From a virus (taxonomy: Duplodnaviria > Heunggongvirae > Uroviricota > Caudoviricetes): DNA of 46,408 nucleotides. A program made the translations under genes and the position numbers. Under the pieces are notes generated by a model. The model was not told the origin of the DNA. It saw nothing but the letters and a program-made list of their open reading frames with translations, and ran no database searches. The DNA lies in the IMG/VR virus record IMGVR_UViG_2740892219_000006. One strand, written 5' to 3'. This document shows, one piece after another, positions 4,332 to 21,233 of this stretch (its first letter is position 1; each line of letters begins with the position of its first letter).

Positions 4332-4440
4332 TATATAATTATAGATTTATATAAAAAGTGCTTTACGGGTGGAAAAAAATTTCCTAAGGTTATACCCGAA
4401 ACCGAGCGATACCCGCCCTGGTTAAACCGGAGATAACCCG
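4332..4440 (+). promoter_or_regulatory. Conserved promoter/leader/RBS cassette, copy A (includes the AT-rich 22-bp motif)
   Basis: About 109 bp nearly identical to 14027-14134 and 21124-21233: AT-rich motif, TTTACG-N17-TAAGGT promoter-like hexamers, conserved leader and GGAG RBS directly before the ATG. Confidence 0.55.
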
Positions 4441-4821
4441 ATGAGCATGATTAAAATCCGCAAAAACGCTTTCCTTAAAATTCAAACTATCCTGGCTGGT
4501 TCTGTTGGCGTGATTTGCCGTTCTTCTTCAAGCCGCATCGATGACGGCTACGATGATGAGTATCGTGTGTCCTCGTGCGATGAGGCTTTAACCTGGCTGA
4601 AGGAGAATCAGGAACGTGCCCAGGTATATCTGGAAACAGAGAACGGCAATCAGATGCTGCGTATTAGCGGTCGTTATGGATTTGAAACTACATTCATGGC
4701 CTATTTTAATCAGGCTTACTTTGACAAGGAGTTGGCCTGGTACACTGATCGCATGAGCAAAAGCGAGCCAGCCCCGATTACACCGCCGAACAATAAACCA
4801 TTTTTATTCCTCGTTAAGTAA
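4441..4821 (+). CDS. Hypothetical protein (126 aa)
   Basis: ORF directly driven by cassette A; no recognised domain. Confidence 0.5.
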   Translation: MSMIKIRKNAFLKIQTILAGSVGVICRSSSSRIDDGYDDEYRVSSCDEALTWLKENQERAQVYLETENGNQMLRISGRYGFETTFMAYFNQAYFDKELAWYTDRMSKSEPAPITPPNNKPFLFLVK

Positions 4822-4884
4822 ACACAATGCGTAAAGTGTCATTTTGACACTTTGCGAGTGTTAATATTGTGCGAGGAGGGTGCT

Positions 4885-5157
4885 ATGACGGGTTATGAAT
4901 TGAAATTATGGCGTCGTGGGATGAACTGGACGCAGGAGCGAGCCGCCGAAGAATTTGGGATATCGTTGGCTACATATAAGCGATATGAGAAGGGGGAGCC
5001 GCCGAGGGTCATTGAGATGGCCATTCGCGTTCTGTCGTTTGACGATATGGTGAAGGATCTTTCACACCTTGATAAAGACGCGATTCTGTTAAGGCTGCAA
5101 ACCCTTGTATGGGAAAAGGTTAAAGTGTCGTCAGAATTGGAACAAGGGATCAAATGA
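4885..5157 (+). CDS. XRE-family HTH protein
   Basis: HTH-like LKLWRRGMNWTQERAAEEFGISLATYKRYE; GAGGAGGG RBS before ATG 4885. Confidence 0.5.
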   Translation: MTGYELKLWRRGMNWTQERAAEEFGISLATYKRYEKGEPPRVIEMAIRVLSFDDMVKDLSHLDKDAILLRLQTLVWEKVKVSSELEQGIK

Positions 5158-5205
5158 TCCTTTACGGATCGTTTTATGGTGGTGTAATGTAAGCGCCAGA
5201 AAGAC

Positions 5206-5231
5206 AAAAACCGCCTTGCCGGGCGGTTTTC
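5206..5231 (+). terminator. Intrinsic terminator-like hairpin
   Basis: AAAACCGCC-TTGCCG-GGCGGTTTT immediately after the 4885-5157 gene. Confidence 0.5.
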
Positions 5232-5924
5232 AGTCTGAAATTTAAATCTTGCTTGGTAGGCTGGATTTAAAAAGACACCTCTTGATTGGGGCGGCTTTCT
5301 TGCGTCTAAAGATAATCAAATCTTTTTGCGCCTGCAACCCCTTTTTTACTGGTGCCCATTTCAGACTCACGCTCGCGTCGTTGTCTTTGCCACTTCGTTG
5401 GGTTCGGTGTTTTTGGGCGAAGTGGCGCGCGGGTATGCGTACAAGGGGAAAGTGTGCTGACGCAAGCCAGGAACAGCGATCTAAACTAAGTCGAGTCTGA
5501 GAAAGGCAGGAGTGCGACAACTCGCCTGTGCTCTATGAGCAGAAGAAGGTATATCAGACGACCAATGGCATGATTGTGGGCCACAGGGCGCACACGGCGG
5601 CGAAGCATTGGAAACGATGTGGAGCTATCTGGTGGCATGAGTTCCGGTACTCGATCTCGAGCTTTTTTTGATGCTTTTGAGAAGGGGCCGGAACTCCGGT
5701 AAAGGGCACCCTGTATGGGGGGAGGGGGGGGTGTGTCTGAAGGGTGGTTATCGGTTATGGTGGAATTATGATGCGTAGAAAAGCGAGTTTGCTGCAAGCT
5801 ATTGGGTCCATTATTTCTTTGTTTCCGGCAGTTGATCATTTTCGTCATATGGCGACGCGTTCCAGTATGGGCTTGGCGCGTGATGCTGACGCTATTCGAA
5901 AGGATTTTCAGAACGTCTCTGGCG

Positions 5925-5962
5925 TTGATAAGAGAGAAAAGAGTAAGGGGCCGTAGCCCCTT
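5925..5962 (-). terminator. Intrinsic terminator downstream of the antirepressor gene (minus strand)
   Basis: AAGGGGC-CGTA-GCCCCTT hairpin followed on the minus strand by CTCTTTTCTCTCTT. Confidence 0.6.
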
Positions 5963-5966
5963 GTAG

Positions 5967-7112
5967 TTATGGTCTGCTTTTCTGTGCCAGCTTATCAGCA
6001 CATGTTTTTATCAGATCCTGTAGTGTCCTGGCTGGCAGGTTTGCATCCAGAACGCTGAGTATGCTGTTGTGATCAGCCTGGTCGACTACTTTGCCTGTCG
6101 GTGGTAGTAGCTTGAGCTGAGGATTCAGGTTTTCGTCAAAGCTGATAAGTGCTCTGGCGTTTCTGAGCAGATCAAGAAGTAAGGCTGATATCACATTTTC
6201 CTGAGTCATTGCTGGCAGATTTAGCGTCGCTTTGGTTTTCCCTGTTGCCTTGTCAAACTCCTTGATTAGTTCCTTCCTGTAGTTCGGTTCCGTTAATAGC
6301 CGATTATGCTCTGTTGCCGCGCGGATAATCGTTTTTTCCTGGTACAGTCGTTTAGCCAGATCGCGCTCGTACTGTGTTTTTAACACGCTGCTGATAGCGT
6401 TAAAGGCTTCAATGTAGGCCAGCTTGATATCCTTCACGCCTGGGCCGTCGATACTTTCCATGAGCAAGGTAAATCCGTCTTTTGTCATGCGATAGATTGT
6501 TATTTCGCGGTCGCTTCCTTCCAGCGGTCGTTGCTCTTTAAAGAAATGACGTGCCGCAGCCGTGCGAGGAATGCGTAGCGCATCGATGGCCATAACGATG
6601 GAATTGTTTGTGGTGCTGAATGCCTGGGCAACATCGGCTGAGGTTGTGAGTGGCTCGTTGTTGCACACCTTAATGTAAAACATCGGTTTGGCGTTGAGCG
6701 TATCGACAACCTCACGAGCATTGTTTGGCGAGACGGTAACGGTCGCGGCCGTTTGCGCGTTCTGGTTGAAGTAGCAGTCTTCCAGCCGTTCGAACACATC
6801 CCACGCTTGGTTAGTTTCAAGCATTTTGGCGTGACGTGCAGCCCCGCGTTCTGTCCAGAGGATGAGGGAGCGGACTTTAGGTGAAACTGGATTTTGTGAG
6901 TAGTTTAAAGCTACCCGCAATTCTTTAAGGTCATTACCAACAACTTTGAAAAAGTGTTTCCCTTCAACGAAACGTACTTTGTTCTCATGATGATTCTGGC
7001 GAATACGCACCGGCTCAGTGCCGTAAAGCTGTGCCAGTAACTCGGTAGTAATGACAGGGATTTGGTTATGCAGGATAGGCTGTAGGGTGTTAACGGTCGG
7101 AAGCGTTTTCAT
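5967..7112 (-). CDS. Phage antirepressor (ORF6N-type N-terminal domain plus Rha-like domain)
   Basis: 381 aa; N-terminal ELLAQLYGTEPVRIRQNHHENKVRFVEGKHFF is recalled as ORF6N/Ant-like; central region ITIYRMTKDGFTLLMESIDGPG..IKLAYIEAFN is recalled as Rha-like. Confidence 0.7.
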   Translation of the reverse strand: MKTLPTVNTLQPILHNQIPVITTELLAQLYGTEPVRIRQNHHENKVRFVEGKHFFKVVGNDLKELRVALNYSQNPVSPKVRSLILWTERGAARHAKMLETNQAWDVFERLEDCYFNQNAQTAATVTVSPNNAREVVDTLNAKPMFYIKVCNNEPLTTSADVAQAFSTTNNSIVMAIDALRIPRTAAARHFFKEQRPLEGSDREITIYRMTKDGFTLLMESIDGPGVKDIKLAYIEAFNAISSVLKTQYERDLAKRLYQEKTIIRAATEHNRLLTEPNYRKELIKEFDKATGKTKATLNLPAMTQENVISALLLDLLRNARALISFDENLNPQLKLLPPTGKVVDQADHNSILSVLDANLPARTLQDLIKTCADKLAQKSRP

Positions 7113-7300
7113 TTTGTACCTCCCATAACTACTTTGGTTACGAGGGAGATTTTTGCGTCAGAAACAGTGTTATCGTTGCTGGCGATGCGCATAGCTTCGC
7201 GCTCGATGATTTCAGCCAGGCGGAATTTATCGGCGTATGAGGCTTTCTTGAGAAGGATCTTTACGAGGTTGACGTAATAGTCATGGGGTAGGTTTGTCAT
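7109..7300 (-). CDS. Small protein (63 aa) translationally coupled to the antirepressor
   Basis: ATG 7300 with GGAGAT RBS; stop overlaps the antirepressor start. Confidence 0.45.
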   Translation of the reverse strand: MTNLPHDYYVNLVKILLKKASYADKFRLAEIIEREAMRIASNDNTVSDAKISLVTKVVMGGTK

Positions 7301-7594
7301 TGTGATATCTCCGATTAAAGGAACTATCACCACCAATGACGCCAATCAATATGGTGGTGAGACGTACAGGGTTGGCGTAACCGGCACAATGACAAACCCG
7401 GCGCGGATTTCTCCGCCCCCGCACGCCCCACCATAATTTGGGTGTAGCAGTGCTTTACGCATAAAAAAACCGCTAACGCGGTATGCGCCATTGTGCAATC
7501 GGGACGCCAATCCCGACCGTAGATTTTGCTACGGCTCGGAAAGTGTCCACCAATGGCGCATTCATGTCAATACGGCGGGATTTTAACAGAGACA

Positions 7595-7609
7595 ACCACA
7601 TAGCGTGGG
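7595..7609. promoter_or_regulatory. Operator-like site ACCACATAGCGTGGG upstream of the antirepressor operon
   Basis: 14/15 match to the ACCAC-N5-GTGGT palindrome. Confidence 0.35.
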
Positions 7610-7680
7610 TTTGAAAAACGGAATTTTCTGCTCATTAAGCGCATGATTTGACCAATCAAATTTGTTTGATACTGAATTTT

Positions 7681-7806
7681 GGGAATCTAATGTGAATGTA
7701 AGGAACCTTAACGTGAGTGTTGGGAACTTAACGTGATTTATTGTTGAAAAAAGTTGCTTTGCATCCAATTTTTTGGATATGATTTGAATGTAGGGAACTT
7801 CATTGT
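7681..7806. promoter_or_regulatory. Direct-repeat array (GGGAAC-TTAACGTGA-like, 3-4 copies) plus palindrome ATCCAATTTTTTGGAT in a putative promoter
   Basis: Repeats at about 7681, 7700, 7720 and 7790; the 16-bp palindrome at 7763-7778 sits between TTGCTT (-35-like) and TATGAT (-10-like). Confidence 0.45.
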
Positions 7807-7869
7807 ATTGGATGTGGTTTCTTTTGAGAATGGAAATTGGTAGTGAATTTAATGCAGAGGAGGTAAAAA

Positions 7870-8442
7870 ATGACTGAACTGTCAAAAAACTCATGTTTTT
7901 CAACAATTCACCTAATGATCATAAAAGAACTTAGGCTAGAAAGAGGTGTGCATCAAGGAGTGCTGGCCCAAGCGGCTGGAAAAACACCAAACGCATGGAC
8001 AAAGATAGAGAACGGGCAGTCTGTATTAACGGTTGATGCTCTTTTTGGTGCTTGCTCTGCCCTTAATATTAGCCCAATGAATTTCATGTTGTTGGTAGAA
8101 AAACTGATTCCCGAATTTAATCGCTGTGGTTACTACTTTTTCCCGGGAACAATCGATCAGGACGAGGATAACCTTTTGCCTCTGATGCTGAGTTACTTCA
8201 ACAGCAAGGGGTTTGAAGCATTGAGAAATAGGCCATTCGAAAGAATTAGCATTAGCTCAATGGGATTCTCATTTGGGGGCGGCTTCCCTGTTACTCCAAC
8301 TGCTGTAATGTATTGTTGCGATGAAGCATATAGACATTGGGTCGATAACGGTGCTGATATGGATAATCGAGATTATCTGGAGTCATCAACAGGTCTTGGA
8401 CGGTTTTTAATGAGTGAAGAAACAAAAAAACCGCCCTATTGA
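7870..8442 (+). CDS. XRE-HTH regulator with C-terminal domain of unknown function
   Basis: 190 aa; N-terminal HTH (LAQAAGKTPNAWTKIENGQ); unrecognised C-terminal about 110 aa; GAGGAGG RBS. Confidence 0.55.
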   Translation: MTELSKNSCFSTIHLMIIKELRLERGVHQGVLAQAAGKTPNAWTKIENGQSVLTVDALFGACSALNISPMNFMLLVEKLIPEFNRCGYYFFPGTIDQDEDNLLPLMLSYFNSKGFEALRNRPFERISISSMGFSFGGGFPVTPTAVMYCCDEAYRHWVDNGADMDNRDYLESSTGLGRFLMSEETKKPPY

Positions 8443-8847
8443 GGACGGTTCTTTCGTGCTGATCGGATTCGCGGTCCTTTCAGCATTACGTTGTTGTATA
8501 AACAACCACGCAAGCACAAGCAGCAAGTTGATTTTACCCAAAAGGTAATAATAGTCCACTATTATGCTTCAAAAAATTGTGGTTCTTGTTGTGTCTGCAA
8601 ACTCACAGATTGTGGGTAGGTTACTGATTTTGTGAAAATAAACTGGTTTTTTCGTTTAATTTATTTCCTATTACTAATCTTAAAATAATCGTAAAATACC
8701 TGTGGACCTTCCCGCCGATTCGCACCCGGGCACCGACTTTAGGGGAGGATTTCCTGTTGCCGTACATGCAAGCACAAGCAGCCGTGCTTGCTCTCGCGTT
8801 GTTTTCGTCGGTGGGGATGCCGTGAAACGGCCTGTAAGGGCCATACA

Positions 8848-8970
8848 ATGAAAAAATACTGTATGTGTATTTTTATCGTTGTTACTGGGGCTTTGTTTAC
8901 GCCACATGGGGAGGGTTGGAAGATTACTGATAACGCTCTGAATGTGACGATAAACATTAGCAGCAAGTAG
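8848..8970 (+). CDS. Possible small hydrophobic peptide (40 aa)
   Basis: MKKYCMCIFIVVTGALFT signal-like N-terminus; immediately followed by a strong terminator; weak RBS. Confidence 0.25.
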   Translation: MKKYCMCIFIVVTGALFTPHGEGWKITDNALNVTINISSK

Positions 8971-8975
8971 CGATT

Positions 8976-8998
8976 AGGCCCCTTCGGGGGCCTTTTTT
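8976..8998 (+). terminator. Rho-independent terminator
   Basis: AGGCCCC-TTCG-GGGGCCT followed by TTTTTT. Confidence 0.7.
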
Positions 8999-9008
8999 AT
9001 GGTTGAAT

Positions 9009-9158
9009 TTAAACGCTGGAGCGCATTAAGCCTTTCAGAACTGCTTCACGTACCCATTCTGGCCTGGTGGATAGCAGGGCAAATAAGCGGCCAGCTTGCA
9101 GCCGTTTGAGGTCTATTAGACGAGTTTTTAGTAACCGTGTATATTGTTGCTCGGACAT
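9009..9158 (-). CDS. Small hypothetical protein (49 aa) downstream of parG
   Basis: ATG 9158 with AAGGGG RBS; no recognised domain. Confidence 0.3.
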   Translation of the reverse strand: MSEQQYTRLLKTRLIDLKRLQAGRLFALLSTRPEWVREAVLKGLMRSSV

Positions 9159-9220
9159 AACAAATTCCCCTTGTTGTGTCGCGACGGCCAACAGTTGGCG
9201 CTGGAGGCCGTCACCTTCTC

Positions 9221-9469
9221 TTACTTCTGGTTGTATTGAGCCTTAAGTAACTCAAAAGATTTTGTCAGCACTTCTTTCAATGACATATCCATTGAGCTGG
9301 CGAACGTTTTGTACTCGCGTTTAAATTCAGGGTCGACGTTAAACGCCATTTGTGCCCCACCTGATTTGGTTCTGGTTGGCGTTTCAGTCGGGTCGAAAAC
9401 CTGCGGTTGTTCGATCGATGGCGGTACGCCTTTGCTGTTCTTCTTTGGTGGTTTTGATGGTGCGGCCAT
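9221..9469 (-). CDS. ParG-like ribbon-helix-helix centromere-binding protein
   Basis: 82 aa directly downstream of parA; basic, probably disordered N-terminus and an RHH-like C-terminus (MAFNVDPEFKREYKTFA...); AGAGGGG RBS. Confidence 0.55.
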   Translation of the reverse strand: MAAPSKPPKKNSKGVPPSIEQPQVFDPTETPTRTKSGGAQMAFNVDPEFKREYKTFASSMDMSLKEVLTKSFELLKAQYNQK

Positions 9470-9482
9470 GTGTATCCCCTCT

Positions 9483-9512
9483 TATATAAATCTATAAAAC
9501 TATAATTATATA
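9483..9512. repeat. AT-rich 22-bp motif copy (TATATAAATCTATA / TATAATTATATA) between parA and parG
   Basis: Member of the dispersed motif family also found at 4331, 10191, 10265, 14019, 15231, 15281, 19977 and 21116. Confidence 0.5.
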
Positions 9513-10166
9513 TTACGCGGCAGTAGTCAGAGCCTCAAGCTGGTTGATAATCCCCTGAATAACGTCGTCTGCCTTTTTGCGTGGCGCAACGTATGAGCAC
9601 TCAATGAGGCTTAAGCCCTTATCCTGAGCTTTGCTCAGAGCTGGCTTGTGGGGAATGTACTTATCGACAACAAAGTATGGCGTATTAGCCAGGTACTCTT
9701 GGGCTTCAATATAGTCAGCTTCGTTTTCAGCCGCGCCGGAAAACACCATGCAAATTTTCTTGATTGGTACACCCTTTTTAACGATGCCGTGAGCTGTGTT
9801 AACGGTGGTTTCCAGGTCATCGGTAGAGAATCTGGTTGGCAAAATAACCATATCCAGAAATTCAGAGAGCTTCGGTACTGATTCAGATGCGTAGGCACCG
9901 CCATCGACGATAACCAAGTCGTATACTTCTGATTCGATGATTTTCTGGACTTGTGATGGTGTGCCGCACGGCTGCGCCGCGATTGCTGGTTCGATATTGT
10001 TGGCCATTCTGCGTTGTACCCAACGCGTTACCGTTCCGTTAAGCACATCCATATCGATCAGGCATACATTCCAGCCAGCCTTTGCATAAGCAACTGCTAA
10101 AGCACGGGCAATTGTTGATTTGGTTACGCCGCCTTTTCCGTTGAAAATACCTACAGAGATAGTCAT
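9513..10166 (-). CDS. parA: ParA-family partition ATPase (small type Ib ParA/ParF-like)
   Basis: Deviant Walker A GKGGVTKST near the N-terminus; about 217 aa; start placed at ATG 10166 (GGAG RBS). Confidence 0.8.
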   Translation of the reverse strand: MTISVGIFNGKGGVTKSTIARALAVAYAKAGWNVCLIDMDVLNGTVTRWVQRRMANNIEPAIAAQPCGTPSQVQKIIESEVYDLVIVDGGAYASESVPKLSEFLDMVILPTRFSTDDLETTVNTAHGIVKKGVPIKKICMVFSGAAENEADYIEAQEYLANTPYFVVDKYIPHKPALSKAQDKGLSLIECSYVAPRKKADDVIQGIINQLEALTTAA

Positions 10167-10190
10167 TTGTCGAGACTCCATGTGTTTGAT

Positions 10191-10294
10191 TATATAATTC
10201 TATAAATCTATATTTATAGAACGAGGTAAGCATAACCAACTTTTTGGCGGATGAAAAGCGTTTTATATAATTATATAAATCTATAATCATATAA
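10191..10294. repeat. Centromere/operator-like AT-rich iterons upstream of parA
   Basis: Two direct copies of TATATAATT-TATAAATCTATA about 70 bp apart (10191-10220 and 10265-10294) in the parA promoter region. Confidence 0.5.
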
Positions 10295-10316
10295 GCGGGC
10301 GTTAGCCCGCTTGCAG

Positions 10317-10691: not shown

Positions 10692-10726
10692 GCGTAGCCT
10701 CTTTTATACTTTTACATGTTGTCAAA

Positions 10727-10741
10727 ACCACAAAATGTGGT
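10727..10741. promoter_or_regulatory. Operator-like palindrome ACCACAAAATGTGGT (followed by a T-run)
   Basis: Perfect ACCAC-N5-GTGGT between the repressor gene and the next gene; could also act as a terminator hairpin. Confidence 0.45.
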
Positions 10742-10783
10742 TTTTTTGAGCGTAGAAATGCACGGCTTCCGCCGTGCTGTGTA

Positions 10784-11477: not shown

Positions 11478-11595
11478 ACCACATTTAGTGGTTTTCACAT
11501 GGTAAGACGAGAGGTGGACCACAAATAGAAGGTTATTTTTTGTTTTGCTCATTGAAAAACTCACGATATGTGGTTTTAATACCACGTATCGTGGT
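11478..11595. promoter_or_regulatory. Immunity control region: three ACCAC-N5-GTGGT operators with divergent promoters
   Basis: Sites at 11478-11492, 11560-11574 (one mismatch) and 11581-11595; rightward promoter TTGAAA (11552-11557), 17 bp, TTTAAT (11575-11580) overlapped by two operators. Confidence 0.6.
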
Positions 11596-11614: not shown

Positions 11615-12109
11615 ATGACCTTTCAGGAGTGGGTTGACGAAAATGGAGGCCAAATTGGTGTTGCCAGAAAGTTTGGCTTTACGTCATCACTGATTGGTGC
11701 CTGGTATCGCTTCGAGAGATTCCCTCGTGCGGATAACCTGACGCTGCTGGTGGCGTATTCGGAAGGCCGGATTAACGTCCAGCAATGGGCGGCAGATTTT
11801 GCCGAACGTCAGCGCCAGCGTAGCGATGGCACATCGGTTCGGCAGAACAAGATCAAAGGGAATCTCCCTGTTAACTGCTTATCAAGGCTGAAAGCGGTTT
11901 TCTCTGAGTTGGGGATGCCTGCGGAGCGTTGCAATCTACGCGGTCCGCGATTCATTGCTCGCTGGAAACACTCACACGTAACCGTTTCAGAGGTTCGTGA
12001 TGCGATTACCGTGCTGGAGCTTAAGAATAAAGATTCCAGCGATATCGAGCTGATTCATAAGGAGATTAGCAACGCCCGGCGTTCAGCACTTGGGAGGCTT
12101 GAGGAATGA
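11615..12109 (+). CDS. Cro-like HTH protein with C-terminal extension
   Basis: First gene of the rightward operon; N-terminal GGQIGVARKFGFTSSLIGAWY resembles a Cro/YdaS-type HTH. Confidence 0.5.
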   Translation: MTFQEWVDENGGQIGVARKFGFTSSLIGAWYRFERFPRADNLTLLVAYSEGRINVQQWAADFAERQRQRSDGTSVRQNKIKGNLPVNCLSRLKAVFSELGMPAERCNLRGPRFIARWKHSHVTVSEVRDAITVLELKNKDSSDIELIHKEISNARRSALGRLEE

Positions 12110-13587: not shown

Positions 13588-13965
13588 GTGAGACGCGATC
13601 TGGATAGCTTGTTTGAGCTATGGGCGCTGTGGGTGCGCAATGGCTGCAACGCCCGTAGCGGTTTCGCGTCGATGTTAGAAATGATGATGGTTACGCGTTG
13701 CCAGTTTACCGGAGGGGGCGGCGCACCAAATGACTCACTGGAAACCAGTATCGAGGGAGCGGTGACGGCCCTCACGGTAGTTGATGAGACTGCGGCGCTG
13801 GTTGTCCGAATTGAATACGGGGCGTGGGAGATTCGGGGCCTCGACATAAATGCACCGCATATTGATAAAGCCCACGCCCTTTCTCTTAGTCTCAGACAGT
13901 ATCGCCGGAAGCTGGCAAAAGCCAGGGCGTATGTTGTCGACTATTTGAAAAAGCGAAGAGAGTGA
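13588..13965 (+). CDS. Possible Q-like antiterminator (small prophage Q-family)
   Basis: 125 aa; LFELWALWVRNG resembles the LERWGAWA motif recalled for a small Q-like family; GTG start. Confidence 0.35.
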   Translation: MRRDLDSLFELWALWVRNGCNARSGFASMLEMMMVTRCQFTGGGGAPNDSLETSIEGAVTALTVVDETAALVVRIEYGAWEIRGLDINAPHIDKAHALSLSLRQYRRKLAKARAYVVDYLKKRRE

Positions 13966-14026
13966 AAGTGTCATTTTGAGCTGTTTTGATAGTGTGTAGA
14001 CATCGGGAACATCGAAAATCTATAAA

Positions 14027-14134
14027 TATATAATTATAGATTTATATAAAAAGTGCTTTACAGGTGGGAAAAAATTTCCTAAGGTTATACCCGAAACCGA
14101 GCGATACCCGCCCTGGTTAAACCGGAGAAATCTG
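14027..14134 (+). promoter_or_regulatory. Conserved promoter/leader/RBS cassette, copy B
   Basis: Near-identical to 4332-4440; ends at ATG 14135. Confidence 0.55.
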
Positions 14135-15202
14135 ATGAATAAACAAGTAATTATTTCTGACTGGATCAACAACCCTAACAGCCTGTTAAGCACTGATACT
14201 GGCTACCTATTACGCCATGTTAATGGTCGTATGGTCAAAAGCGATGAGCACGAAACCTTTTTCTTTGTTGAAGACGATGGGCGCATCTATGAGGATGGTT
14301 ACTCTTATGAAGCCCAAACAGGTTGTATCCCTGCGGAGCTGGTGGACGTAACAGAAGAGCTGCGCAAAGCATGGCTTGAACAGCAGCAGCGCGGAGATGA
14401 TTACGTAAATACCTATCAGGAACGCCAGAACGCGCGTCTTGCCCGATATATTGCTCGTGCAGAAAAAGCCAGAAAAGAAGGAGCGGTAGCGCATAAGCGA
14501 GCGCATGACCTGTTGGATGTGATCCCGTTAGGCCAGCCGATTTTAGTTGACCATTATAGCGCGAAAGGCCATCGCCGCCGTTTGTCTAAAGCTGATGCGT
14601 TATTCAGAAAAGCGTTTGTTGAATGCGAAAGTAAAGCATCACACTACGAGAGCAAAGCCGCAGGTGTTGGTCGTAATGGAATTTCGTCTGATGATCCTGA
14701 TGCGCTATTTAAGTTGCTTCGTAAGCTGCAAGGCTGCATGAAGTCACACGTCAAAATGAAGGCCGCAAATAAGGCCATTCGCAAATACAAAAAAGACCAA
14801 TTACAGCAGCTTTCTGCATTAATCGATCTCAGGTTTACAGAAAGCGAAGCCAAAGAGTTACTGGCCGGAGATTTCTGTGGGTGCATCGGATTCCCTTCAT
14901 ACGCACTGAGCAACAATAACGCCGCAATCAAACGACTACAGAGCCGTATTAAGGAGCTTGAATCGGTCAAGTCTGTAACAGGAGCACAGCGCGAAGAATA
15001 CGACGGCTTTTCTATGGAGATAGATCCAGAGGATAACCGCATCCTGTTTTATTTCCCTGGCAAACCAGAGGCAAACATTCGTTCGCTGCTTAAATCACGC
15101 GCCTTTAAGTGGAGTCCAACCCGTAATGCATGGGTTCGCAAGATTACTCCAAACGCCCTGGCTGATGCCCGATATCTAAAAGAATCGCTATTGAAAGCCT
15201 GA
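14135..15202 (+). CDS. Conserved hypothetical protein (355 aa; possibly DUF3560-like)
   Basis: Long ORF driven by cassette B; the C-terminal half resembles a remembered plasmid/phage DUF3560 pattern, unverified. Confidence 0.55.
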   Translation: MNKQVIISDWINNPNSLLSTDTGYLLRHVNGRMVKSDEHETFFFVEDDGRIYEDGYSYEAQTGCIPAELVDVTEELRKAWLEQQQRGDDYVNTYQERQNARLARYIARAEKARKEGAVAHKRAHDLLDVIPLGQPILVDHYSAKGHRRRLSKADALFRKAFVECESKASHYESKAAGVGRNGISSDDPDALFKLLRKLQGCMKSHVKMKAANKAIRKYKKDQLQQLSALIDLRFTESEAKELLAGDFCGCIGFPSYALSNNNAAIKRLQSRIKELESVKSVTGAQREEYDGFSMEIDPEDNRILFYFPGKPEANIRSLLKSRAFKWSPTRNAWVRKITPNALADARYLKESLLKA

Positions 15203-15212
15203 CAGTAAGCCT

Positions 15213-15310
15213 ACGGCGGGACGTCTCCCCCCGTATATAGAATTATATATTTATATAAATAACGGCGGGACGTCTCCCGCCGTATATAGAATTATATATT
15301 TATATAAATG
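15213..15310. repeat. Tandem duplication (2 x 49 bp) of a GC hairpin fused to the AT-rich motif
   Basis: ACGGCGGGACGTCTCCCGCCG palindrome followed by TATATAGAATTATATATTTATATAAAT, present twice in tandem; first copy has one stem mismatch. Confidence 0.6.
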
Positions 15311-15328
15311 TATAAGGACGCCTCGACA

Positions 15329-15610
15329 ATGAAACGCAAAATTATTAACCCCCAAGATGTGATTAATTTCCTGACCGATCACCCATGTTCAAAAGTGGAC
15401 GTAATCGCGGAGCACATTGGTGTGTCGCAGAACTCTATGCGTTGCAGACTGAGAAGCATGGTTGCCGAAGGACAGATAACAACCAGGAAAATAAATGGTT
15501 GCCTGTACTACTCCGCTAAACCGGAATTGCCATTTGGCATGAATCCTAACTCCATGTTGTTTAACACCTTATTAGCCAAAGTTAAGCCGTTGAGAGGGGC
15601 TGTGGCATGA
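15329..15610 (+). CDS. Small putative DNA-binding protein
   Basis: 93 aa from ATG 15329; segment VDVIAEHIGVSQNSMRCRLRSMVAEGQI resembles a winged-helix/HTH. Confidence 0.4.
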   Translation: MKRKIINPQDVINFLTDHPCSKVDVIAEHIGVSQNSMRCRLRSMVAEGQITTRKINGCLYYSAKPELPFGMNPNSMLFNTLLAKVKPLRGAVA

Positions 15611-15972
15611 GCATCAAAACCCATACCGGAATAATCATTACCAATGATGGTGAGAAAAGAGTGAAGTTGCGTGAAACGCCGACAACCTGGTGTGTTGGTC
15701 CGAAAGAAACATATCGCAAGGAAGATGGCCGTCGTTGTGGGGCACCACTTTCCCGCCGTCGCCTCCTTTTGAGCACGATAAAACCTATCGGGCAGGTTGA
15801 GCAACCAACGACTCCGGTAACGAAGATTTCAGACAATAGTCTGGCAAACCTGATCGCTGATGCGGACAAGGTGCTGGAGCGAAACACCCCCGTTGCAGAT
15901 GAGGAATGGTGGCAGGATTTCCGAGCTGCAATGCTAGAGCTTCAGGAACGTCGTCGGGAGGAGTTGAAGTGA
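15607..15972 (+). CDS. Hypothetical protein (121 aa)
   Basis: ATG overlaps the upstream stop; no recognised domain. Confidence 0.4.
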   Translation: MSIKTHTGIIITNDGEKRVKLRETPTTWCVGPKETYRKEDGRRCGAPLSRRRLLLSTIKPIGQVEQPTTPVTKISDNSLANLIADADKVLERNTPVADEEWWQDFRAAMLELQERRREELK

Positions 15973-15992
15973 GCAAGGTGAAAGAGCGCGGC

Positions 15993-16598
15993 ATGATTTT
16001 TAATGATGAGATGGTCCGAGCCATCCTCGAAGGCAGGAAGACGCAGACTCGTCGACCTGTAAAAAATGTCAGGGCCGATAACTGCCTGGTTATCAGTAAA
16101 CCGACAAAGAAACGCAATGGTGTCTATACCCACGTTATGGATGCACCTGAGCATGGCTTATGCCCGTTCGGTAACGTTGGTGATCGCATATGGGTACGTG
16201 AGACATTCAACGCTTTTTGGCTGGATGACGATGTTATTCAGGAAATCAAAGATGGTGTCTCTCTGGCTTCTGAACTGTGTGATTACAAGGCTGATTACTC
16301 AGATAGTAGCAAGCCATCTGAGGGCTGGACCCCGTCAATTCACATGCCGAGATGGGCATCGCGAATTTTGCTGGAAATTACCGACGTGCGTGTGGAGCGG
16401 CTGCATGACATGAGCGAGGCAGATGCCAAAGCGGAAGGCGCATCTCCGGCAACGTACAAGATTACGCCGCCGGAAGCTGTTTATCGTGTTGGTTTTGGTG
16501 ATATCTGGCGCGGTATTTACGGGCAAGAGAACTGGCTATCTAACCCGTGGGTATGGGTAATTGAGTTTAAACGTATTCAGGGGGCAAACAGTGAGTAA
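15993..16598 (+). CDS. Hypothetical protein, possibly ASCH-like
   Basis: N-terminus MIFNDEMVRAILEGRKTQTRRPV is common in a prophage protein family; start uncertain (alternative GTG 15969/15978). Confidence 0.4.
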   Translation: MIFNDEMVRAILEGRKTQTRRPVKNVRADNCLVISKPTKKRNGVYTHVMDAPEHGLCPFGNVGDRIWVRETFNAFWLDDDVIQEIKDGVSLASELCDYKADYSDSSKPSEGWTPSIHMPRWASRILLEITDVRVERLHDMSEADAKAEGASPATYKITPPEAVYRVGFGDIWRGIYGQENWLSNPWVWVIEFKRIQGANSE

Positions 16599-16848
16599 TT
16601 CCGCACGGCTACAGCTTGGTTTTTCACCGCTATCAAAAACCATCGTGTTGGCCAAAATGCGCGATTTAGGTGACGGAACAAAACGCCGTGTAGGCAATGA
16701 TCGCGGTCGTGATGTAACCAACGAGGCCGCACAACTCGTTTGGCATCTTGTCATGGCAGAAGGCGGTGAAATCAATTGGGAGCTGGATGATGGTTCTCGC
16801 ATGGTGTTAAGGGCAGAAAAGCAGGGGGCAAACGATGAAAAACCGTAA
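16591..16848 (+). CDS. Hypothetical protein
   Basis: GTG start preceded by AGGGGGCAAAC, the same RBS context as the next gene. Confidence 0.35.
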   Translation: MSNSARLQLGFSPLSKTIVLAKMRDLGDGTKRRVGNDRGRDVTNEAAQLVWHLVMAEGGEINWELDDGSRMVLRAEKQGANDEKP

Positions 16849-17029
16849 AGCAAAGATTCTGTTAGTTCGTAGAAACGCTCCTGGCGTCTGGCAGTGGGTG
16901 AGACTCAGCAACCGACGGATGGGGTTAATGAAACATTACGGGATGATGGATTGTGGTTTTTGCAAAAAGCCCAGCGCGGCGCAAAACCGCTGGAAAAACC
17001 ACTGTTATCTGCGCACTAAAGGAGAGTGA
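16835..17029 (+). CDS. Small Cys-containing hypothetical protein (64 aa)
   Basis: AGGGGGCAAAC RBS before ATG 16835. Confidence 0.4.
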   Translation: MKNRKAKILLVRRNAPGVWQWVRLSNRRMGLMKHYGMMDCGFCKKPSAAQNRWKNHCYLRTKGE

Positions 17030-17030
17030 G

Positions 17031-17546
17031 ATGGCGTTAACACACCGCGAACTCTGTCAGATTGCGTACAAGTTCCTTAAGCGCAACGGGTTCAAGGTTT
17101 GCTTTCATGACCGCTTTATAGCTGTAACCAGTACCGGAGAACAGCCAGATGCTATGGGATTCAGAAATTCAGCATCATGCCTGATAGAGGCAAAGTGTTC
17201 TCGTGCTGACTTGTTGGCAGATAGAAAAAAGCGTTTCCGTAAAAATCCCTCACTTGGCATGGGCGACTGGCGATTCTTTATTAGTGAGCCGGGAATTATT
17301 TCAGTTGAGGATTTACCTCCCGGCTGGGGATTACTTCACGTTGTTAACGGAAGAGTACGGAAAGTACATGGGTGGCCCAAGGGAAATTGCTGTTGGGGTA
17401 ATCCTGACGATAAGCCATTTACTGGAAATAAGCAGGTTGAATGCGATTACATGTTATCTGCATTAAGGCGCATGGAGTTGAGAGGGCACCTTAATGAAAT
17501 ATATGACGGTGTAATTGTTAATAAGAAAGAAGGAAACGCGGCATGA
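17031..17546 (+). CDS. Putative PD-(D/E)XK-family nuclease
   Basis: AAGGAG RBS before ATG 17031; motif PDAMGF...CLIEAKCSRAD is compatible with a D...E.K nuclease core. Confidence 0.4.
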   Translation: MALTHRELCQIAYKFLKRNGFKVCFHDRFIAVTSTGEQPDAMGFRNSASCLIEAKCSRADLLADRKKRFRKNPSLGMGDWRFFISEPGIISVEDLPPGWGLLHVVNGRVRKVHGWPKGNCCWGNPDDKPFTGNKQVECDYMLSALRRMELRGHLNEIYDGVIVNKKEGNAA

Positions 17547-17986
17547 TTACTATTACCAAAGAGCGACTACTGACAATCAAGCAGTGGCGCGAAACATACG
17601 GACCTAGTAGCAACGTTGTACTGCCAGCAGAAGAAGCGGAAGAACTGGCACGAATTGCTCTGGCAGCGCTGGAAGTCGAGCCGGTTGCAGTAAACGACGA
17701 CATGGCTTACGCATTCCATCACGCATTGTCAGATTCATCGCTAGGCGCTGATGAAGTAGAGGAAATTAAGGCCGGTTTGCGTGCTGCCTTTGCCAACGTC
17801 ACTATCCAACCAGAGCCGGTAGTGCCGGATGATGGTCGCGAAAAGTTCGAAGCACTTGTCAGGTTTCATGCGGGTGATAAAGACCATGAAACATTATTGC
17901 TTCGTGCCAACGAAGGGATGAATTACCAGGACCCGAATGTTGATCTGGCGTGGATATTCTGGAAGTCCAGTCGTGAACATATATAA
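17543..17986 (+). CDS. Hypothetical acidic protein (147 aa)
   Basis: Start overlaps the upstream stop; no recognised domain. Confidence 0.45.
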   Translation: MITITKERLLTIKQWRETYGPSSNVVLPAEEAEELARIALAALEVEPVAVNDDMAYAFHHALSDSSLGADEVEEIKAGLRAAFANVTIQPEPVVPDDGREKFEALVRFHAGDKDHETLLLRANEGMNYQDPNVDLAWIFWKSSREHI

Positions 17987-18328
17987 GCTGTAGTGAGAAG
18001 CCATGCGATTACGAGCAGTATTCAGATATTCAGAGCGGATAATGAAGCACATACAACCGAAAACATGGCAGAAACTGGACTCTATGGGAGTTAAGTTGGA
18101 GAAGATTACTCAACTTAAGCAGTGGCATATCGGCGAATATTATGGAAGTCCTGGTCGGGATGTTCGGTTGGTAAAAAGTTGAACATTGCTTTTTTATTGA
18201 TCGATTAACCACGATATGAAGGTTTTTTTATGGGAAAACCTTGTTTTAGGTGGTAACTGGGTGTAGTGTTTCATTTAACGTAGTAAAACTGCGTTAAGCG
18301 ATTACCGCGTAATTTGTTGCTTTATGAA

Positions 18329-18359
18329 GCCCTGCCTTTTTCGGCGGGGCTTTTTTTTT
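18329..18359 (+). terminator. Rho-independent terminator ending the early operon
   Basis: GCCCTGCC-loop-GGCGGGGC hairpin followed by a 9-T run. Confidence 0.7.
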
Positions 18360-18372
18360 AACGAGGATTTCA

Positions 18373-18768
18373 ATGTCAGCAGAACCAATTTCCGGTACGG
18401 CCGTTGCTGCTGGTGGCCTGATGGGTGCCAGCGTTTTTGGTATTGCAACTGGTATTGATTACGGCGTTGTATTCGGGGCATTTGCTGGCGCTGTTTTCTA
18501 TGTTGCTACAGCGGTGAATATTAGCCGTCTCAAGCTGATTGGCTATTTCTTTACATCGTTCATTGTTGGAGTGATTGGAGCGCCGTTAGTTGGCTCATTT
18601 CTTGCCAAATGGACCAGCTACAACGATCGTCCTCTGGATGCGCTTGGTGCGGTTATTGTGGCTGCATTGACCATTAAAATCCTCACGTTCGTAAACAGCC
18701 AGGATCTCGGTAGCATCTTTGGAATGCTTTCCCGCTTACGTGGAGGGGGTTCAAATGGTAAGCAGTGA
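18373..18768 (+). CDS. Holin-like membrane protein
   Basis: 131 aa, several hydrophobic segments, first gene of the lysis cassette. Confidence 0.5.
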   Translation: MSAEPISGTAVAAGGLMGASVFGIATGIDYGVVFGAFAGAVFYVATAVNISRLKLIGYFFTSFIVGVIGAPLVGSFLAKWTSYNDRPLDALGAVIVAALTIKILTFVNSQDLGSIFGMLSRLRGGGSNGKQ

Positions 18769-19051
18769 CCCGTCAGCACTGATTAATGCGGTGCTTTGCA
18801 CAGTAATCGTAATGGCGCTGATGCTTTATCGACGGAAAGACTCCAGGCATCGTCCATTTGTTTCCTTTCTGGCTTATATCTACGTCATTGTATACGCCAA
18901 TGTTCCCTTCCGTTATGTGTTCGGTCTTTATCAAGAATCCCACTGGCTGGTGGTTATTGGAAATCTGATTATCTGCATCGTTGTTCTGTATTTCAGGGGC
19001 AATCTGGCGCGGATAGTTGACGCATTAGGATTTAATCATGACCAAAGATGA
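18755..19051 (+). CDS. Second small membrane protein (holin/antiholin-like)
   Basis: 98 aa from ATG 18755 (GGAGGGGG RBS); two hydrophobic segments. Confidence 0.45.
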   Translation: MVSSDPSALINAVLCTVIVMALMLYRRKDSRHRPFVSFLAYIYVIVYANVPFRYVFGLYQESHWLVVIGNLIICIVVLYFRGNLARIVDALGFNHDQR

Positions 19052-19580
19052 GATTTTTAACAGCATTCTTGGAAAAGAGGGCGGCTATGTGGATCACCCT
19101 GACGACAAGGGAGGCCCAACAAAGTGGGGCATTACTCAGAACACTGCCCGTGCTCATGGATACCGTGGCGATATGCGCGATTTAACCCGCGAACAGGCAC
19201 TAGAAATCCTTGAGGCTGATTACTGGTACGGACCACGCTTTGATCAGGTGGCCGCATTATCCTCTGATATTGCCGCAGAGCTGTGTGATACCGGTGTGAA
19301 TATGGGGCCAACAGTGGCGTCCAAAATGCTTCAACGCTGGCTGAATGTGTTCAATCTGCGTGGGAAGCTGTATCCCGATTTGGATGCAGATGGACGAATC
19401 GGTCCACGTACCATTAATGCGCTGCGTGCTTATCTTGGGAATCGGGGAAAAGACGGCGAACGGGTGATGCTGACGTCGCTGAACTGTACGCAGGGCGAAC
19501 GCTATCTGGAGTTGGCGGAGAAGCGCGAGGCGAATGAGTCGTTTGTCTACGGCTGGATGAAAGAGCGAGTGGTGGTATGA
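19038..19580 (+). CDS. Endolysin (glycoside hydrolase family 108 plus peptidoglycan-binding domain)
   Basis: N-terminal KEGGYVDHPDDKGGPTKWGIT signature recalled for GH108 lysozymes. Confidence 0.8.
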   Translation: MTKDEIFNSILGKEGGYVDHPDDKGGPTKWGITQNTARAHGYRGDMRDLTREQALEILEADYWYGPRFDQVAALSSDIAAELCDTGVNMGPTVASKMLQRWLNVFNLRGKLYPDLDADGRIGPRTINALRAYLGNRGKDGERVMLTSLNCTQGERYLELAEKREANESFVYGWMKERVVV

Positions 19581-19855
19581 CTGGTTTGAAGGCCGTTTTG
19601 TCATTTATTGGCACAATTATATTGGTTGCATTCGGCGCGTTTGGTTTTGGTCGTATGAAGGGGCGAGAAAAGGCCGAAGATGAAGCTGAAAAGCAGCGCA
19701 TTAATGAGAATGCAGCCGCCGTAAAAGCCACTGCGGAGCGGCGTATAGAAGTGACAAAAGAGGTGGGGAATGTACAGCAGAGTGTTAACCATATGGCTGA
19801 TGACGATGTTGATCGCGAGCTGCGGGAGTCGTGGAAGCGTCCCGGTGGTGGTTGA
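19577..19855 (+). CDS. Rz-like inner-membrane spanin
   Basis: 92 aa with N-terminal TM segment and charged coiled-coil region; follows the endolysin. Confidence 0.6.
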   Translation: MTGLKAVLSFIGTIILVAFGAFGFGRMKGREKAEDEAEKQRINENAAAVKATAERRIEVTKEVGNVQQSVNHMADDDVDRELRESWKRPGGG

Positions 19856-19979
19856 TACCGCCTGTGATTGGGTAAAGCCCATCTACCTGACTGATCACGA
19901 CATCGATGTTATGGACCGCCAGACAAAGAAAGATATTCTGGCTCATAACAGGGCATGGGAAATCAACTGCCGAAAGTAA
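19770..19979 (+). CDS. Rz1-like outer-membrane lipoprotein spanin, overlapping Rz in another frame
   Basis: Signal peptide with lipobox LIASC; AGAGGTGGGG RBS; starts inside the Rz reading frame. Confidence 0.55.
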   Translation: MYSRVLTIWLMTMLIASCGSRGSVPVVVDTACDWVKPIYLTDHDIDVMDRQTKKDILAHNRAWEINCRK

Positions 19980-20013
19980 TATATATTTCTATAATTATAT
20001 AAATATATAGTTA
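19977..20013. repeat. AT-rich 22-bp motif copy
   Basis: TCTATAATTATATAAATATATA; same family as the par-region iterons. Confidence 0.45.
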
Positions 20014-20148
20014 CAACATTCTATGCGCTTTTCTCATGAGCGCACGCATCAACCATGTTTGTCTGATATGCCGCCGCGCCCAAAAATCCTGAATTTATTG
20101 GCTGGGATTTTCGTGCGCGGCGCCACACCAGACAAACAGATCAAATAT

Positions 20149-20224
20149 GGCCCCTTAGCTCAGTGGTTAGAGCAGGCGACTCATAATCGCACGGTCATCG
20201 GTTCAAATCCGGTAGGGGCCACCA
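20149..20224 (+). tRNA. tRNA with CAU anticodon (Met or lysidine-dependent Ile2 type), 3-prime CCA encoded
   Basis: Manually folded cloverleaf: 7-bp acceptor GGCCCCT/AGGGGCC, D-stem GCTC/GAGC, anticodon loop CTCATAA, T-stem ATCGG/CCGGT with TTCAAAT loop; the 5-prime half resembles the E. coli Ile2 tRNA from memory. Confidence 0.85.
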
Positions 20225-20532
20225 ATTCACTCTCACACATAAAGATAAGCGCGGTGGAGTTACTTCCTTCGTGCTCATCTTTATGCGTGCCTGGTGCGCA
20301 TTTCGGGCGAACGTGGGGCTAAGTTACAGGCAGGGCCTGTTATCCGCAAAGGGGTAAAAGCTGGAGCGGCGCGGAACTGTAGCCGTGTTACCAAAACAGC
20401 GTTGTCGGGCGATATCCGGCACACAACAGGCAAGGGCATTAATCAGTCTGGTTAGTGCCCTTTTCGTTGTGTTTGCTGTAGAGCTGGCCAGCGTTATGAC
20501 TGCCGGAGATAAGCGCCGGAGGCACAACTAAC

Positions 20533-21120
20533 ATGGAGGCAATTGCATTGTTTAATCTGATTTATGCAGATCCCCCCTGGGAATACAAAGACAAGTGTAA
20601 GGATGGGAATCGTGGAGCTGGTTTTAAGTATCCAACGATGAAAGCTGAGGATATTGCTCGTATTCCTGTCTGGCAGCTTGCTAATCCTGAATCGTGTTTG
20701 TTGGCCATGTGGTGGGTTCCGACTCAGCCAGAAGAAGCGTTGCTGGTGGTGAAAGCATGGGGATTCAGGCTTATGACCATGAAGGGCTTCACATGGAACA
20801 AATGTGGTAGCCGACAACCAGATAAGCTGGTGATGGGGATGGGGCATATGACTCGTGCGAACAGTGAAGATTGCTTGTTTGCGGTAAAAGGCAAACTGCC
20901 GACCCGCCTTGATGCGGGGATCATTCAGTCGTTTACATCGCCTCGTTTGGAGCATTCTCGGAAGCCTGATGTGGTCCGTGACAAGCTGGTAAAGCTGTTA
21001 GGCGATGTTCCTCGTATTGAGCTGTTTGCTCGCGGAGATTTACCTGATGGTTGGCATGGCTGGGGCAACCAGTGCAATGGAGGTATCCAGTTGCATGATG
21101 CTCTCTGGCAAGTGGTATAG
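20533..21120 (+). CDS. MT-A70-family N6-adenine DNA methyltransferase
   Basis: 195 aa with DPPW motif (LIYADPPWEY) near the N-terminus; GGAGG RBS. Confidence 0.8.
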   Translation: MEAIALFNLIYADPPWEYKDKCKDGNRGAGFKYPTMKAEDIARIPVWQLANPESCLLAMWWVPTQPEEALLVVKAWGFRLMTMKGFTWNKCGSRQPDKLVMGMGHMTRANSEDCLFAVKGKLPTRLDAGIIQSFTSPRLEHSRKPDVVRDKLVKLLGDVPRIELFARGDLPDGWHGWGNQCNGGIQLHDALWQVV

Positions 21121-21123
21121 AAT

Positions 21124-21233
21124 TATATAATTATAGATTTATATAAAAAGTGCTTTGCAGGTGGGAAAAAATTTCCTATAGTGGCAACCAGAAACCGAGC
21201 GATAGTCGCCCTGGTTAAACCGGAGATAACCCG
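21124..21233 (+). promoter_or_regulatory. Conserved promoter/leader/RBS cassette, copy C
   Basis: TTTGCA (21154-21159), 17 bp, TATAGT (21177-21182); the leader differs from copies A/B by clustered substitutions creating AACCAG...CTGGTT complementarity. Confidence 0.55.

Follow-up and report, generated by a model that had tools for sequence, protein, structure and literature searches.

Near-identical promoter and leader cassettes of an enterobacterial phage-plasmid: a possible regulon of its partition protein

Introduction

Phage-plasmids must coordinate plasmid maintenance with phage development, and detailed knowledge of how this is done exists for few models, such as P1 and N15. The 46,408-nt stretch of DNA analyzed here (IMG/VR record IMGVR_UViG_2740892219_000006, a member of the Caudoviricetes; hereafter the window) raises the matter in a concrete form: three genes that are unrelated to one another are each preceded by a nearly identical intergenic unit, or cassette, that holds a promoter, a 5' untranslated region (5'UTR) and a ribosome-binding site (RBS). 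What, if anything, reads these three cassettes in common? An earlier note on this DNA had described them and suspected a small regulon switched by one factor, with a Q-like, a CI-like and a ParG-like protein as candidates. We report that the cassettes are real, strongly conserved and previously unannotated, and we argue that they may be governed by the partition protein of the element.

The window represents a ~48-kb circular phage-plasmid of the P2-tail type. Its gene set comprises RepA, a small ParA, a RelE/helix-turn-helix (HTH) toxin-antitoxin pair and a CI-like repressor, together with an isrK/C4 RNA/Ant module like the immI of P1, a P2-type tail and ClpP-protease/portal head genes; among its near relatives are the Yersinia phages vB_YpM_39/41/44 and the 48.5-kb plasmid (NZ_CP009073) of the reference strain E. 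coli ATCC 25922, on which all three cassettes are present.

Results

The cassettes and their promoters

BLAST and MAFFT placed the three near-identical units at 4332-4440 (cassette A), 14027-14134 (B) and 21124-21233 (C), exactly where the earlier note had them, and a repeat-family search of the window agreed with BLAST on the three copies. Cassettes A and B are 98% identical over 102 nt, while C and B share 90.3% over 103 nt with one 1-nt indel (BLAST). The similarity might have been limited to an AT-rich motif, but the MAFFT alignment runs from the AT-rich 22-mer at the 5' end through promoter and leader to the ATG. Every cassette lies in an intergenic gap immediately 5' of a Shine-Dalgarno (SD) sequence and ATG, and the units end at the start codons of the open reading frames (ORFs) 4441-4821 (A, 126 aa), 14135-15202 (B, 355 aa) and 21234-21494 (C, 86 aa), which are unrelated, as had been claimed. 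The promoter and leader part, CCCTGGTTAAACCGGAG, which makes up the 3' half of the unit, has three matches at up to three mismatches, where 0.07 were expected, and is confined to the three cassettes. The 22-mer TATATAATTATAGATTTATATA is indeed exact in all three; it is not, however, specific to them, with 12 matches at up to three mismatches against 0 expected, and belongs to a type of array present at nine intergenic loci.

Four layers can be distinguished in a cassette: an array of boxes with an 8-bp period, a sigma70-type promoter, a 17-bp palindrome in the promoter spacer, and a leader of ~45 nt with a GGAG SD. Their positions are as follows.

4332..4353 (+), cassette A array of three TATA/TAGA boxes at an 8-bp period, a putative site of the partition ribbon-helix-helix (RHH) protein
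4362..4390 (+), cassette A core promoter, TTTACG-17 bp-TAAGGT, with the palindrome TGGAAAA-AAA-TTTCCTA at 4370-4386
4398..4440 (+), cassette A leader, with the invariant core GAAACCGAGCGATAnnCGCCCTGGTTAAACCGGAG at 4398-4432, the SD GGAG at 4429-4432 and the ATG at 4441
14019..14048 (+), cassette B array of four boxes
14057..14085 (+), cassette B core promoter, TTTACA-17-TAAGGT, with the palindrome at 14065-14081
14093..14134 (+), cassette B leader, with the SD at 14124-14127 and the ATG at 14135
21116..21145 (+), cassette C array of four boxes, box 1 of which reaches into the stop codon of the MT-A70 methylase gene (20533-21120)
21154..21182 (+), cassette C core promoter, TTTGCA-17-TATAGT, with the palindrome at 21162-21178
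21191..21233 (+), cassette C leader in a "type II" form with loop AGT, the SD at 21222-21225 and the ATG at 21234

The sigma70-like promoter proposed earlier held up in its hexamers, which are TTTAC(G/A) or TTTGCA and TAAGGT or TATAGT, and in a conserved -10 pattern described below, but the spacer is 17 bp in all three copies and not 17/18. A consensus promoter scan lists only copy C (9/12); it misses A and B because TAAGGT matches the consensus at just three of six positions. Transcription is predicted to start ~7 nt after the -10, which in cassette A would be at about 4397-4399. From their sequence, then, the cassettes look like sigma70-type promoter/5'UTR/RBS modules set before unrelated genes.

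Box arrays and the partition module

The AT-rich motif is an array of three to four TATA/TAGA boxes repeated with a period of 8 bp. Within the window, arrays of three or more boxes are confined to nine intergenic loci (0.22 expected): in the three cassettes, at three places around parA and the adjacent gene for an 82-aa protein, at two places after gene B, and once 5' of tRNA-Met. The syntenic loci in Salmonella relatives all keep box arrays. The arrays stand directly 5' of the -35 in cassettes A, B and C, and also before the MarR-like gene and the tRNA. They were considered as RepA iterons, and this was ruled out, as there is no array in 1-4300 near repA. The par genes and the arrays outside the cassettes are listed below.

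9221..9469 (-), gene for the 82-aa candidate centromere-binding protein, with a basic disordered N-terminal tail and an RHH domain
9485..9512 (-), four-box array that fills the gap from the parA stop codon to the RBS of the 82-aa gene
9513..10166 (-), parA, encoding a small Walker-type ParA of 217 aa from the start annotated in relatives
10191..10220 (-), four-box array just 5' of the parA start, overlapping the likely parA -10 and start site
10264..10293 (-), four-box array immediately following a hairpin and 5' of the likely parA -35
15213..15314 (+), tandem duplicate of the hairpin ACGGCGGGACGTCTCCCGCCGT plus box array, between gene B and the gene for a 93-aa MarR/winged-HTH-like protein
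19980..20009 (-), four-box array ~140 nt upstream of tRNA-Met

The ParA, at 217-222 aa depending on the start, gives CbiA/ParA/MipZ matches along its length and corresponds to the small type Ib ParA proteins that have no N-terminal DNA-binding domain; the three four-box arrays in and around parA and the 82-aa gene are the iterated repeats beside par that characterize type Ib systems. The 82-aa ORF lies directly downstream of parA and combines a basic tail (KPPKK..KG.PP) with a C-terminal strand-helix-helix. In the AlphaFold model residues 1-40 are without regular structure and are followed by a strand and two helices, with a predicted local distance difference test score of 92-97 for residues 41-80. 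The top Foldseek matches of the model were all RHH proteins (PutA, CopG, CdbA, ParG, Arc), with weak E-values owing to the small size of the domain, and 16 of the 48 members of the protein family match Pfam RHH_10, with Antitox_RHH also matched. The best PDB profile match is ParG, at a weak E-value of 0.37, and the Pfam ParG model gave no match to the family; omega was absent from the sequence and fold search results for the protein.

Distant homologues of this module proved informative about the arrays. Four homologous par modules in unrelated backbones keep arrays with an 8-bp period beside par. In the 28-kb conjugative plasmid L025 (NZ_CP037908.1), whose ParA and small protein are 45% and 39% identical to those of the window, the same TATA arrays are found 5' of parA and between the par genes, and more of them lie in intergenic gaps of the type IV secretion system. 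The box itself varies by lineage, being TACA/TGTA in L042, GCGA/TCGC in L079 and ACGA/TCGT in L080, and the period is 8 bp in each. Because the box changes with the par lineage while the period and the position at par are kept, as in ParG/parH, we assign the arrays to the 82-aa protein: they are most likely binding sites of this putative partition RHH protein, and the inference that it binds them seems to us well founded.

The same conjugative plasmid, which carries cfr, also holds the first 47 bp of cassette A, truncated ~65 bp from the end of a neighboring IS26 transposase gene and next to the same RelE/HTH module; the cassette piece is at 1444-1490 of that plasmid and its own par-type arrays are at 11985-12014 and 13760-13781.

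Conservation and recombination

The cassette was found in 65 PLSDB plasmids and in 74 of 5426 complete E. coli genomes (~1.4%), with a median of three copies, and 214 of the 217 places are on plasmids. No annotated feature underlies the cassette among the public-record matches listed, and a search of one literature library for this phage-plasmid family or the Yersinia phages vB_YpM_39/41/44 found nothing. Wider searches stayed within the same group: a 19-mer scan of one genome per species gave chance matches only, in unrelated metagenome-assembled genomes; promoter- and leader-anchored scans of viral contigs returned the same loci only, bar one contig-end fragment (L043), which also carries the invariant leader; a metagenome scan gave the same cassette family and two chance matches; and a locus search based on DUF3560 found close relatives only.

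Related genomes nearly always hold three copies, and the leader core is nearly invariant among them. Synteny is kept in Salmonella and Klebsiella relatives: cassette A stands before the 126-aa gene and an XRE HTH gene, B before the DUF3560 gene, and C before whichever gene comes first after the MT-A70 methylase. When the window is compared with a Salmonella relative, flanking genes agree at 41-56% of their third codon positions, which puts neutral sites near saturation; the cassettes agree in 94, 98 and 99 of 110 aligned columns (85-90%), and are by this measure conserved far above the neutral expectation. Across 56 distinct cassettes, part of them retrieved with the leader pattern, the -10 always keeps T1, A2 and T6, while its position 3 is T in 28, A in 25 and G in 3, and positions 4-5 vary, giving forms such as TAAGGT, TATGGT, TAGTGT, TATGAT and TATAGT; the -35 is TTTACA in almost all copies. 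In the same set 33 of the 35 bases of the leader core never change, the only two variable ones lying in a hairpin loop, and beyond the core the spacer from SD to ATG is also variable. Retrieval anchored on the promoter and retrieval anchored on the protein (gene A product, 61-71% identical) return the same invariant leader.

Not all of this likeness need reflect selection. Paralogous cassettes of one genome share lineage-specific changes, with GGTAGGAAAATATTT in all Salmonella copies versus GGTGGGAAAAAATTT in E. coli copies, and concerted evolution therefore contributes to their similarity. With most relatives, blocks of homology begin at 4331 and break off at 15260, both of them array positions, and alignments with Salmonella relatives start at 4330, 14021 and 19980. 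As cassette boundaries thus coincide with mosaic junctions, the cassettes appear to double as crossover points for gene replacement.

Copy C illustrates this. Its clustered substitutions had been taken as changes of C itself that create AACCAG/CTGGTT complementarity and might give a structured leader, a proposal that we could not sustain. The substitutions are the leader form (AACCAG...AGTCG) of all three Salmonella and Klebsiella cassettes and are not new in C, whereas in most E. coli relatives position C, too, shows the A/B form, with a different gene behind it; in 63 of the 65 plasmids the match to the cassette C region stops at ~21243, at the ATG, and another gene follows. Judged by these comparisons, copy C of the window is a recombinant in which a promoter half of the E. 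coli type is joined to a type II leader half, and the gene behind it has been replaced. As for structure, the leaders show weak folding (z -0.3 to -1.6), and with the predicted +1 AACCAG would fall at or 5' of the first transcribed base, so that the proposed helix could not form in the RNA.

The spacer palindrome and the leader

The spacer of each cassette promoter contains a 17-bp palindrome, TAGGAAA-N3-TTTCCTA. Salmonella copies of it are perfect, those of E. coli carry a single mismatch, and at its 3' end it shares two bases with the start of the -10. The palindrome recurs at a fourth promoter, and neither was among the observations of the earlier note.

2335..2363 (+), fourth promoter, TTGCCA-CATAGGAAAAGATTTCC-TACCAT, with a 17-bp spacer and the palindrome at 2343-2359 in the same register, without array or shared leader

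This promoter lies 5' of an ORF at 2390-2677 (no Pfam match) and is kept at the syntenic place in Salmonella relatives (L023 16342, L024 29092, L026 22511), though the flanks do not align. The shared palindrome therefore implies a second, putative dimeric regulator. A 190-aa XRE protein (7870-8442) was rejected as its binder, being absent from Salmonella relatives, which retain the palindrome; the candidates left are the XRE protein of operon A, the MarR-like protein and proteins without known function.

The leader can form two alternative small hairpins, one of which pairs part of the SD. Rfam returned no leader or cassette match at the gathering threshold, nor at E-values up to 5. Antisense control by C4 or isrK was tried and dropped: RNAduplex energies against the leaders were no better than against shuffled leaders, whereas C4 against its own icd-like target was clearly better. 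A trans antisense RNA from the window fared no better, the longest complement being 11 nt, inside a coding region and at about the chance level.

Regulators that do not fit

Two of the regulators put forward earlier find no place at the cassettes. The motif ACCAC-N5-GTGGT has eight matches at up to one mismatch against 0.68 expected, among them 716-730, 7595-7609, 10727-10741, 11478-11492, ~11559-11573 and 11581-11595; it stands 5' of repA and of the isrK/C4/ant module, between cI and the gene that follows it, and three times in the gap between cI and the early operon. It is likely the operator set of the CI-like repressor, predicted from sequence and dispersed as for C1 of P1, and this apparent operator occurs at seven other places and in no cassette. 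The supposed Q-like protein is a 125-aa ORF (13588-13965) without a Pfam match, which falls in a PHROG of unknown function and matches no Q family; in Salmonella relatives an extra gene lies between it and cassette B. Of the proposal of a small regulon under one factor, a shared trans factor remains plausible, with comparison favoring the ParG-like protein, while the Q-like and CI-like candidates are unsupported.

Genes behind the cassettes and neighboring features

The genes that the cassettes precede are as follows.

4441..5157 (+), operon A, encoding the 126-aa protein and then an XRE-type HTH protein of ~90 aa, with a hairpin terminator at 5205-5232
14135..15202 (+), gene B, encoding a 355-aa DUF3560 protein whose C-terminal half resembles a "primase" PHROG
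21234..21688 (+), operon C, the 86-aa ORF and a 65-aa ORF, with terminators at ~21704-21730 and 21968-21991

The 126-aa product of gene A has no Pfam match and falls in a PHROG without known function; its AlphaFold model is acceptable (predicted template modeling (TM) score 0.70), and Foldseek gave no usable match (TM only ~0.26). The 86-aa ORF of operon C likewise has no Pfam match and is present in just 2 of the 65 plasmid relatives. Between the two intrinsic terminators that separate operon C from the late genes lies ~240 nt of non-coding DNA (21704-21991), conserved at 71-79% in Salmonella relatives and with a sub-threshold isrJ-like Rfam match at 21934-21992; it could be a small RNA or a region of regulated read-through.

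Several arrays have further neighbors of interest. At three places, within 10296-10315 and 15213-15283, a G+C-rich hairpin runs straight into a box array instead of a T-run, and the arrays may thus double as the A/T-rich tail of terminators. One Salmonella relative (L023 27957-29069) has a DGQHR-domain gene after a single array at the spot of the 15213-15314 duplicate, which suggests a cargo insertion point there. The tRNA-Met (CAT) at 20149-20224 is preceded both by the box array at 19980 and by an inverted repeat with 34-nt arms (20056-20089 / 20105-20138) that are 85% complementary.

Elsewhere in the window, the module resembling immI of P1/P7 (5967-7535, minus strand) contains an isrK-like RNA (7463-7535), a C4 antisense RNA (7350-7438), a 78-aa icd-like ORF, complementary to the C4 loops around its start, and a 381-aa antirepressor with ORF6N and Rha domains. 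A full-length Rfam match to ryfA RNA (143 bits) lies at 8702-8998 on the plus strand, between the XRE gene and the par operon. The tail-fibre region has three tandem 132-nt repeats at 45639-46034 (100/86/63%) and three repeats at 120-nt spacing at 39997-40281, both probably coding.

Discussion

The explanation that we prefer, and to which we give slightly better than an even chance on the strength of the sequence comparisons, is that the three cassettes are paralogous regulatory units of the phage-plasmid that form a regulon gated by its partition protein, as with omega of pSM19035. The 82-aa protein would coat the arrays, which in the cassettes span about -44 to -72 and adjoin the -35 at the position of an UP element, and which at parA overlap the core promoter, where binding would bring about autoregulation. 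Taken together the nine arrays would serve also as dispersed centromeres, so that one protein would tag the plasmid for segregation and at the same time control the expression level of at least three further operons. The sign of the control would most likely be repression, with protein at the A/T-rich UP-element position damping three otherwise active promoters; in this view the operons would be active when the element enters a naive cell and turned down after the plasmid state has been established.

Several points weigh against this proposal. The cassette array lies upstream of the -35, off the core promoter, so that activation or a purely centromeric role is equally compatible with its position. 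The factor and everything said about it are deduced from comparison, in which the ParG profile match is weak (E = 0.37), as are the Foldseek E-values. The arrays also leave the most conserved parts of the cassette, the spacer palindrome and the leader, unexplained, for which other factors are needed, and part of the apparent conservation could be gene conversion and not selection on each copy. A bolder version takes in these other layers, and in it the cassette would be a portable expression adaptor with three inputs, the partition array, the second operator and the 35-nt invariant leader, whose copies are homogenized by gene conversion and which acts as a docking point for cargo swaps, with the segregation protein running the establishment program of a temperate phage. 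That version, which would include a new cis-regulatory element read by an RNA- or DNA-binding factor, we regard as unlikely.

Recombination might alternatively be the main story. The cassettes could be chiefly portable junctions, or "linkers," copied by gene conversion and used as crossover points, their near-identity then owing nothing to a common regulator. The coincidence of homology and alignment edges with array positions (4331 and 15260; 4330, 14021 and 19980), the end of the cassette C match at the ATG (~21243) in 63 of the 65 plasmids with a different gene beyond, the chimeric copy C of the window and the lineage-specific substitutions common to paralogues all agree with this. Recombination alone, however, cannot account for 33 of 35 leader bases and palindrome arms that are identical at near-saturated divergence, and it leaves the invariant T1, A2 and T6 of the -10 unexplained; as a replacement for a regulon it is therefore improbable to about the same degree as the three-input adaptor. 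The two are in any case compatible, since a functional cassette can also be a crossover hotspot. A poorer prospect still is that the arrays are read by some other factor (the 93-aa MarR-like protein, the XRE protein of operon A, or H-NS, IHF or Fis) or are passive UP elements, their presence at par being coincidence. They are very A/T-rich and in the UP-element position, an invariant AAAAAG stands beside the -35, and two arrays lie directly 5' of the MarR-like gene. Yet the box tracks the par lineage (TATA, TACA, GCGA, ACGA) even in backbones without the other candidate regulators, the 8-bp period is out of phase with the DNA helix, which argues against intrinsic curvature, and a host nucleoid protein is unlikely to need exact 22-mers.

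The remaining two explanations look to the transcript, and we think both of them very unlikely. Antitermination of the lambda type, with a Q-like protein loading at the cassette and allowing read-through of terminators, from cassette C into the packaging and structural genes, would fit a palindrome between -35 and -10, an invariant initially transcribed region with GATAGT, a -10-like candidate pause element, or GATACC at about +11 to +16, and short operons that end in hairpin terminators, two of them after operon C and just before the late genes. But the 125-aa ORF belongs to no Q family and is separated from cassette B by another gene in Salmonella relatives, the terminators lie 0.5-1.1 kb downstream, after coding genes, the genes downstream of operon A are on the opposite strand, and the fourth promoter has the palindrome without the leader. 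That the leader instead acts in cis as an RNA switch, or is targeted by a trans-acting RNA such as C4 or isrK, for joint translational control of the three operons has as little to recommend it. Its invariance, bar two hairpin-loop bases and the SD-to-ATG spacer, and the alternative hairpins, one of them pairing part of the SD, are what such an element might show; its folding energies are nevertheless ordinary (z -0.3 to -1.6), Rfam is blank up to E 5, duplexes with C4 and isrK are at the level of shuffled leaders, the longest complement in the window is 11 nt, and the stems never vary, so that covariation cannot be assessed.

If the arrays are indeed sites of the partition protein, the cassettes would best be filed as a regulon governed by that protein, kin to omega and ParG and comparable to KorB and N15 Sop. 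KorB of RK2 runs a regulon, and N15 Sop affects late genes. The likeness to KorB and its OB sites on the IncP plasmid RK2, and to the SopB sites of N15, is that partition-protein sites are scattered over the replicon, some beside promoters, and that segregation is thereby coupled to global gene control. N15 has four separate inverted-repeat centromere sites (PMC7205306). KorB and SopB are, however, large HTH ParB proteins of type Ia that act at single palindromes, unlike the type Ib RHH protein and the iterated boxes, its putative sites, of the phage-plasmid.

Closer counterparts are found among type Ib systems. The arrays of omega are situated in the copS, delta and omega promoter regions and serve as centromeres as well (PMC3074150). 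The omega/delta system of pSM19035 shares with the present one the type Ib organization, a small RHH protein with a disordered N-terminal tail, and short contiguous repeats at several promoters. It differs in that there is no detectable sequence similarity, in the unit of the repeat (8 bp, a 4-bp box with an AT spacer, here versus the 7-bp WATCACW heptad of omega), in the number of units per site (3-4 versus 7-10) and in the host replicon (an enterobacterial phage-plasmid versus the Firmicute resistance plasmid pSM19035 of the inc18 group). Here, moreover, three of the arrays are joined to an identical promoter, to a second operator and to a leader. Regulation by the partition protein is in our case inferred, and the likeness to omega is one of function and not of family membership.

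In the ParG/parH system tetramer boxes with AT-rich spacers form both centromere and operator (PMC3130281). ParF/ParG/parH of TP228 resembles the par module of the window in its small ParA, its downstream RHH protein with a flexible N-terminal tail, and these tetramer boxes with AT-rich spacers. The box is TATA/TAGA here and ACTC in TP228, the profile match to ParG is the weak one noted above, and TP228 has one parH of ~100 bp and the OF operator beside the genes in place of nine dispersed short arrays. The late promoters of P1 and the class promoters of T7 offer a different parallel, in that several units of one genome share a near-identical promoter and initial transcribed sequence; unlike them the cassettes have ordinary sigma70-like hexamers, with no dedicated polymerase or known late activator motif, and their identity spans the whole 5'UTR to the RBS.

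Were the partition RHH protein to gate the three extra operons, the phage-plasmid would provide an enterobacterial counterpart of the omega regulon. Two further regulators might be sought by way of the invariant leader and the spacer palindrome, both of them defined targets. The cassettes also mark points of cargo exchange, which should aid both in reading the mosaic structure of these phage-plasmids and in predicting which of their accessory genes are expressed.

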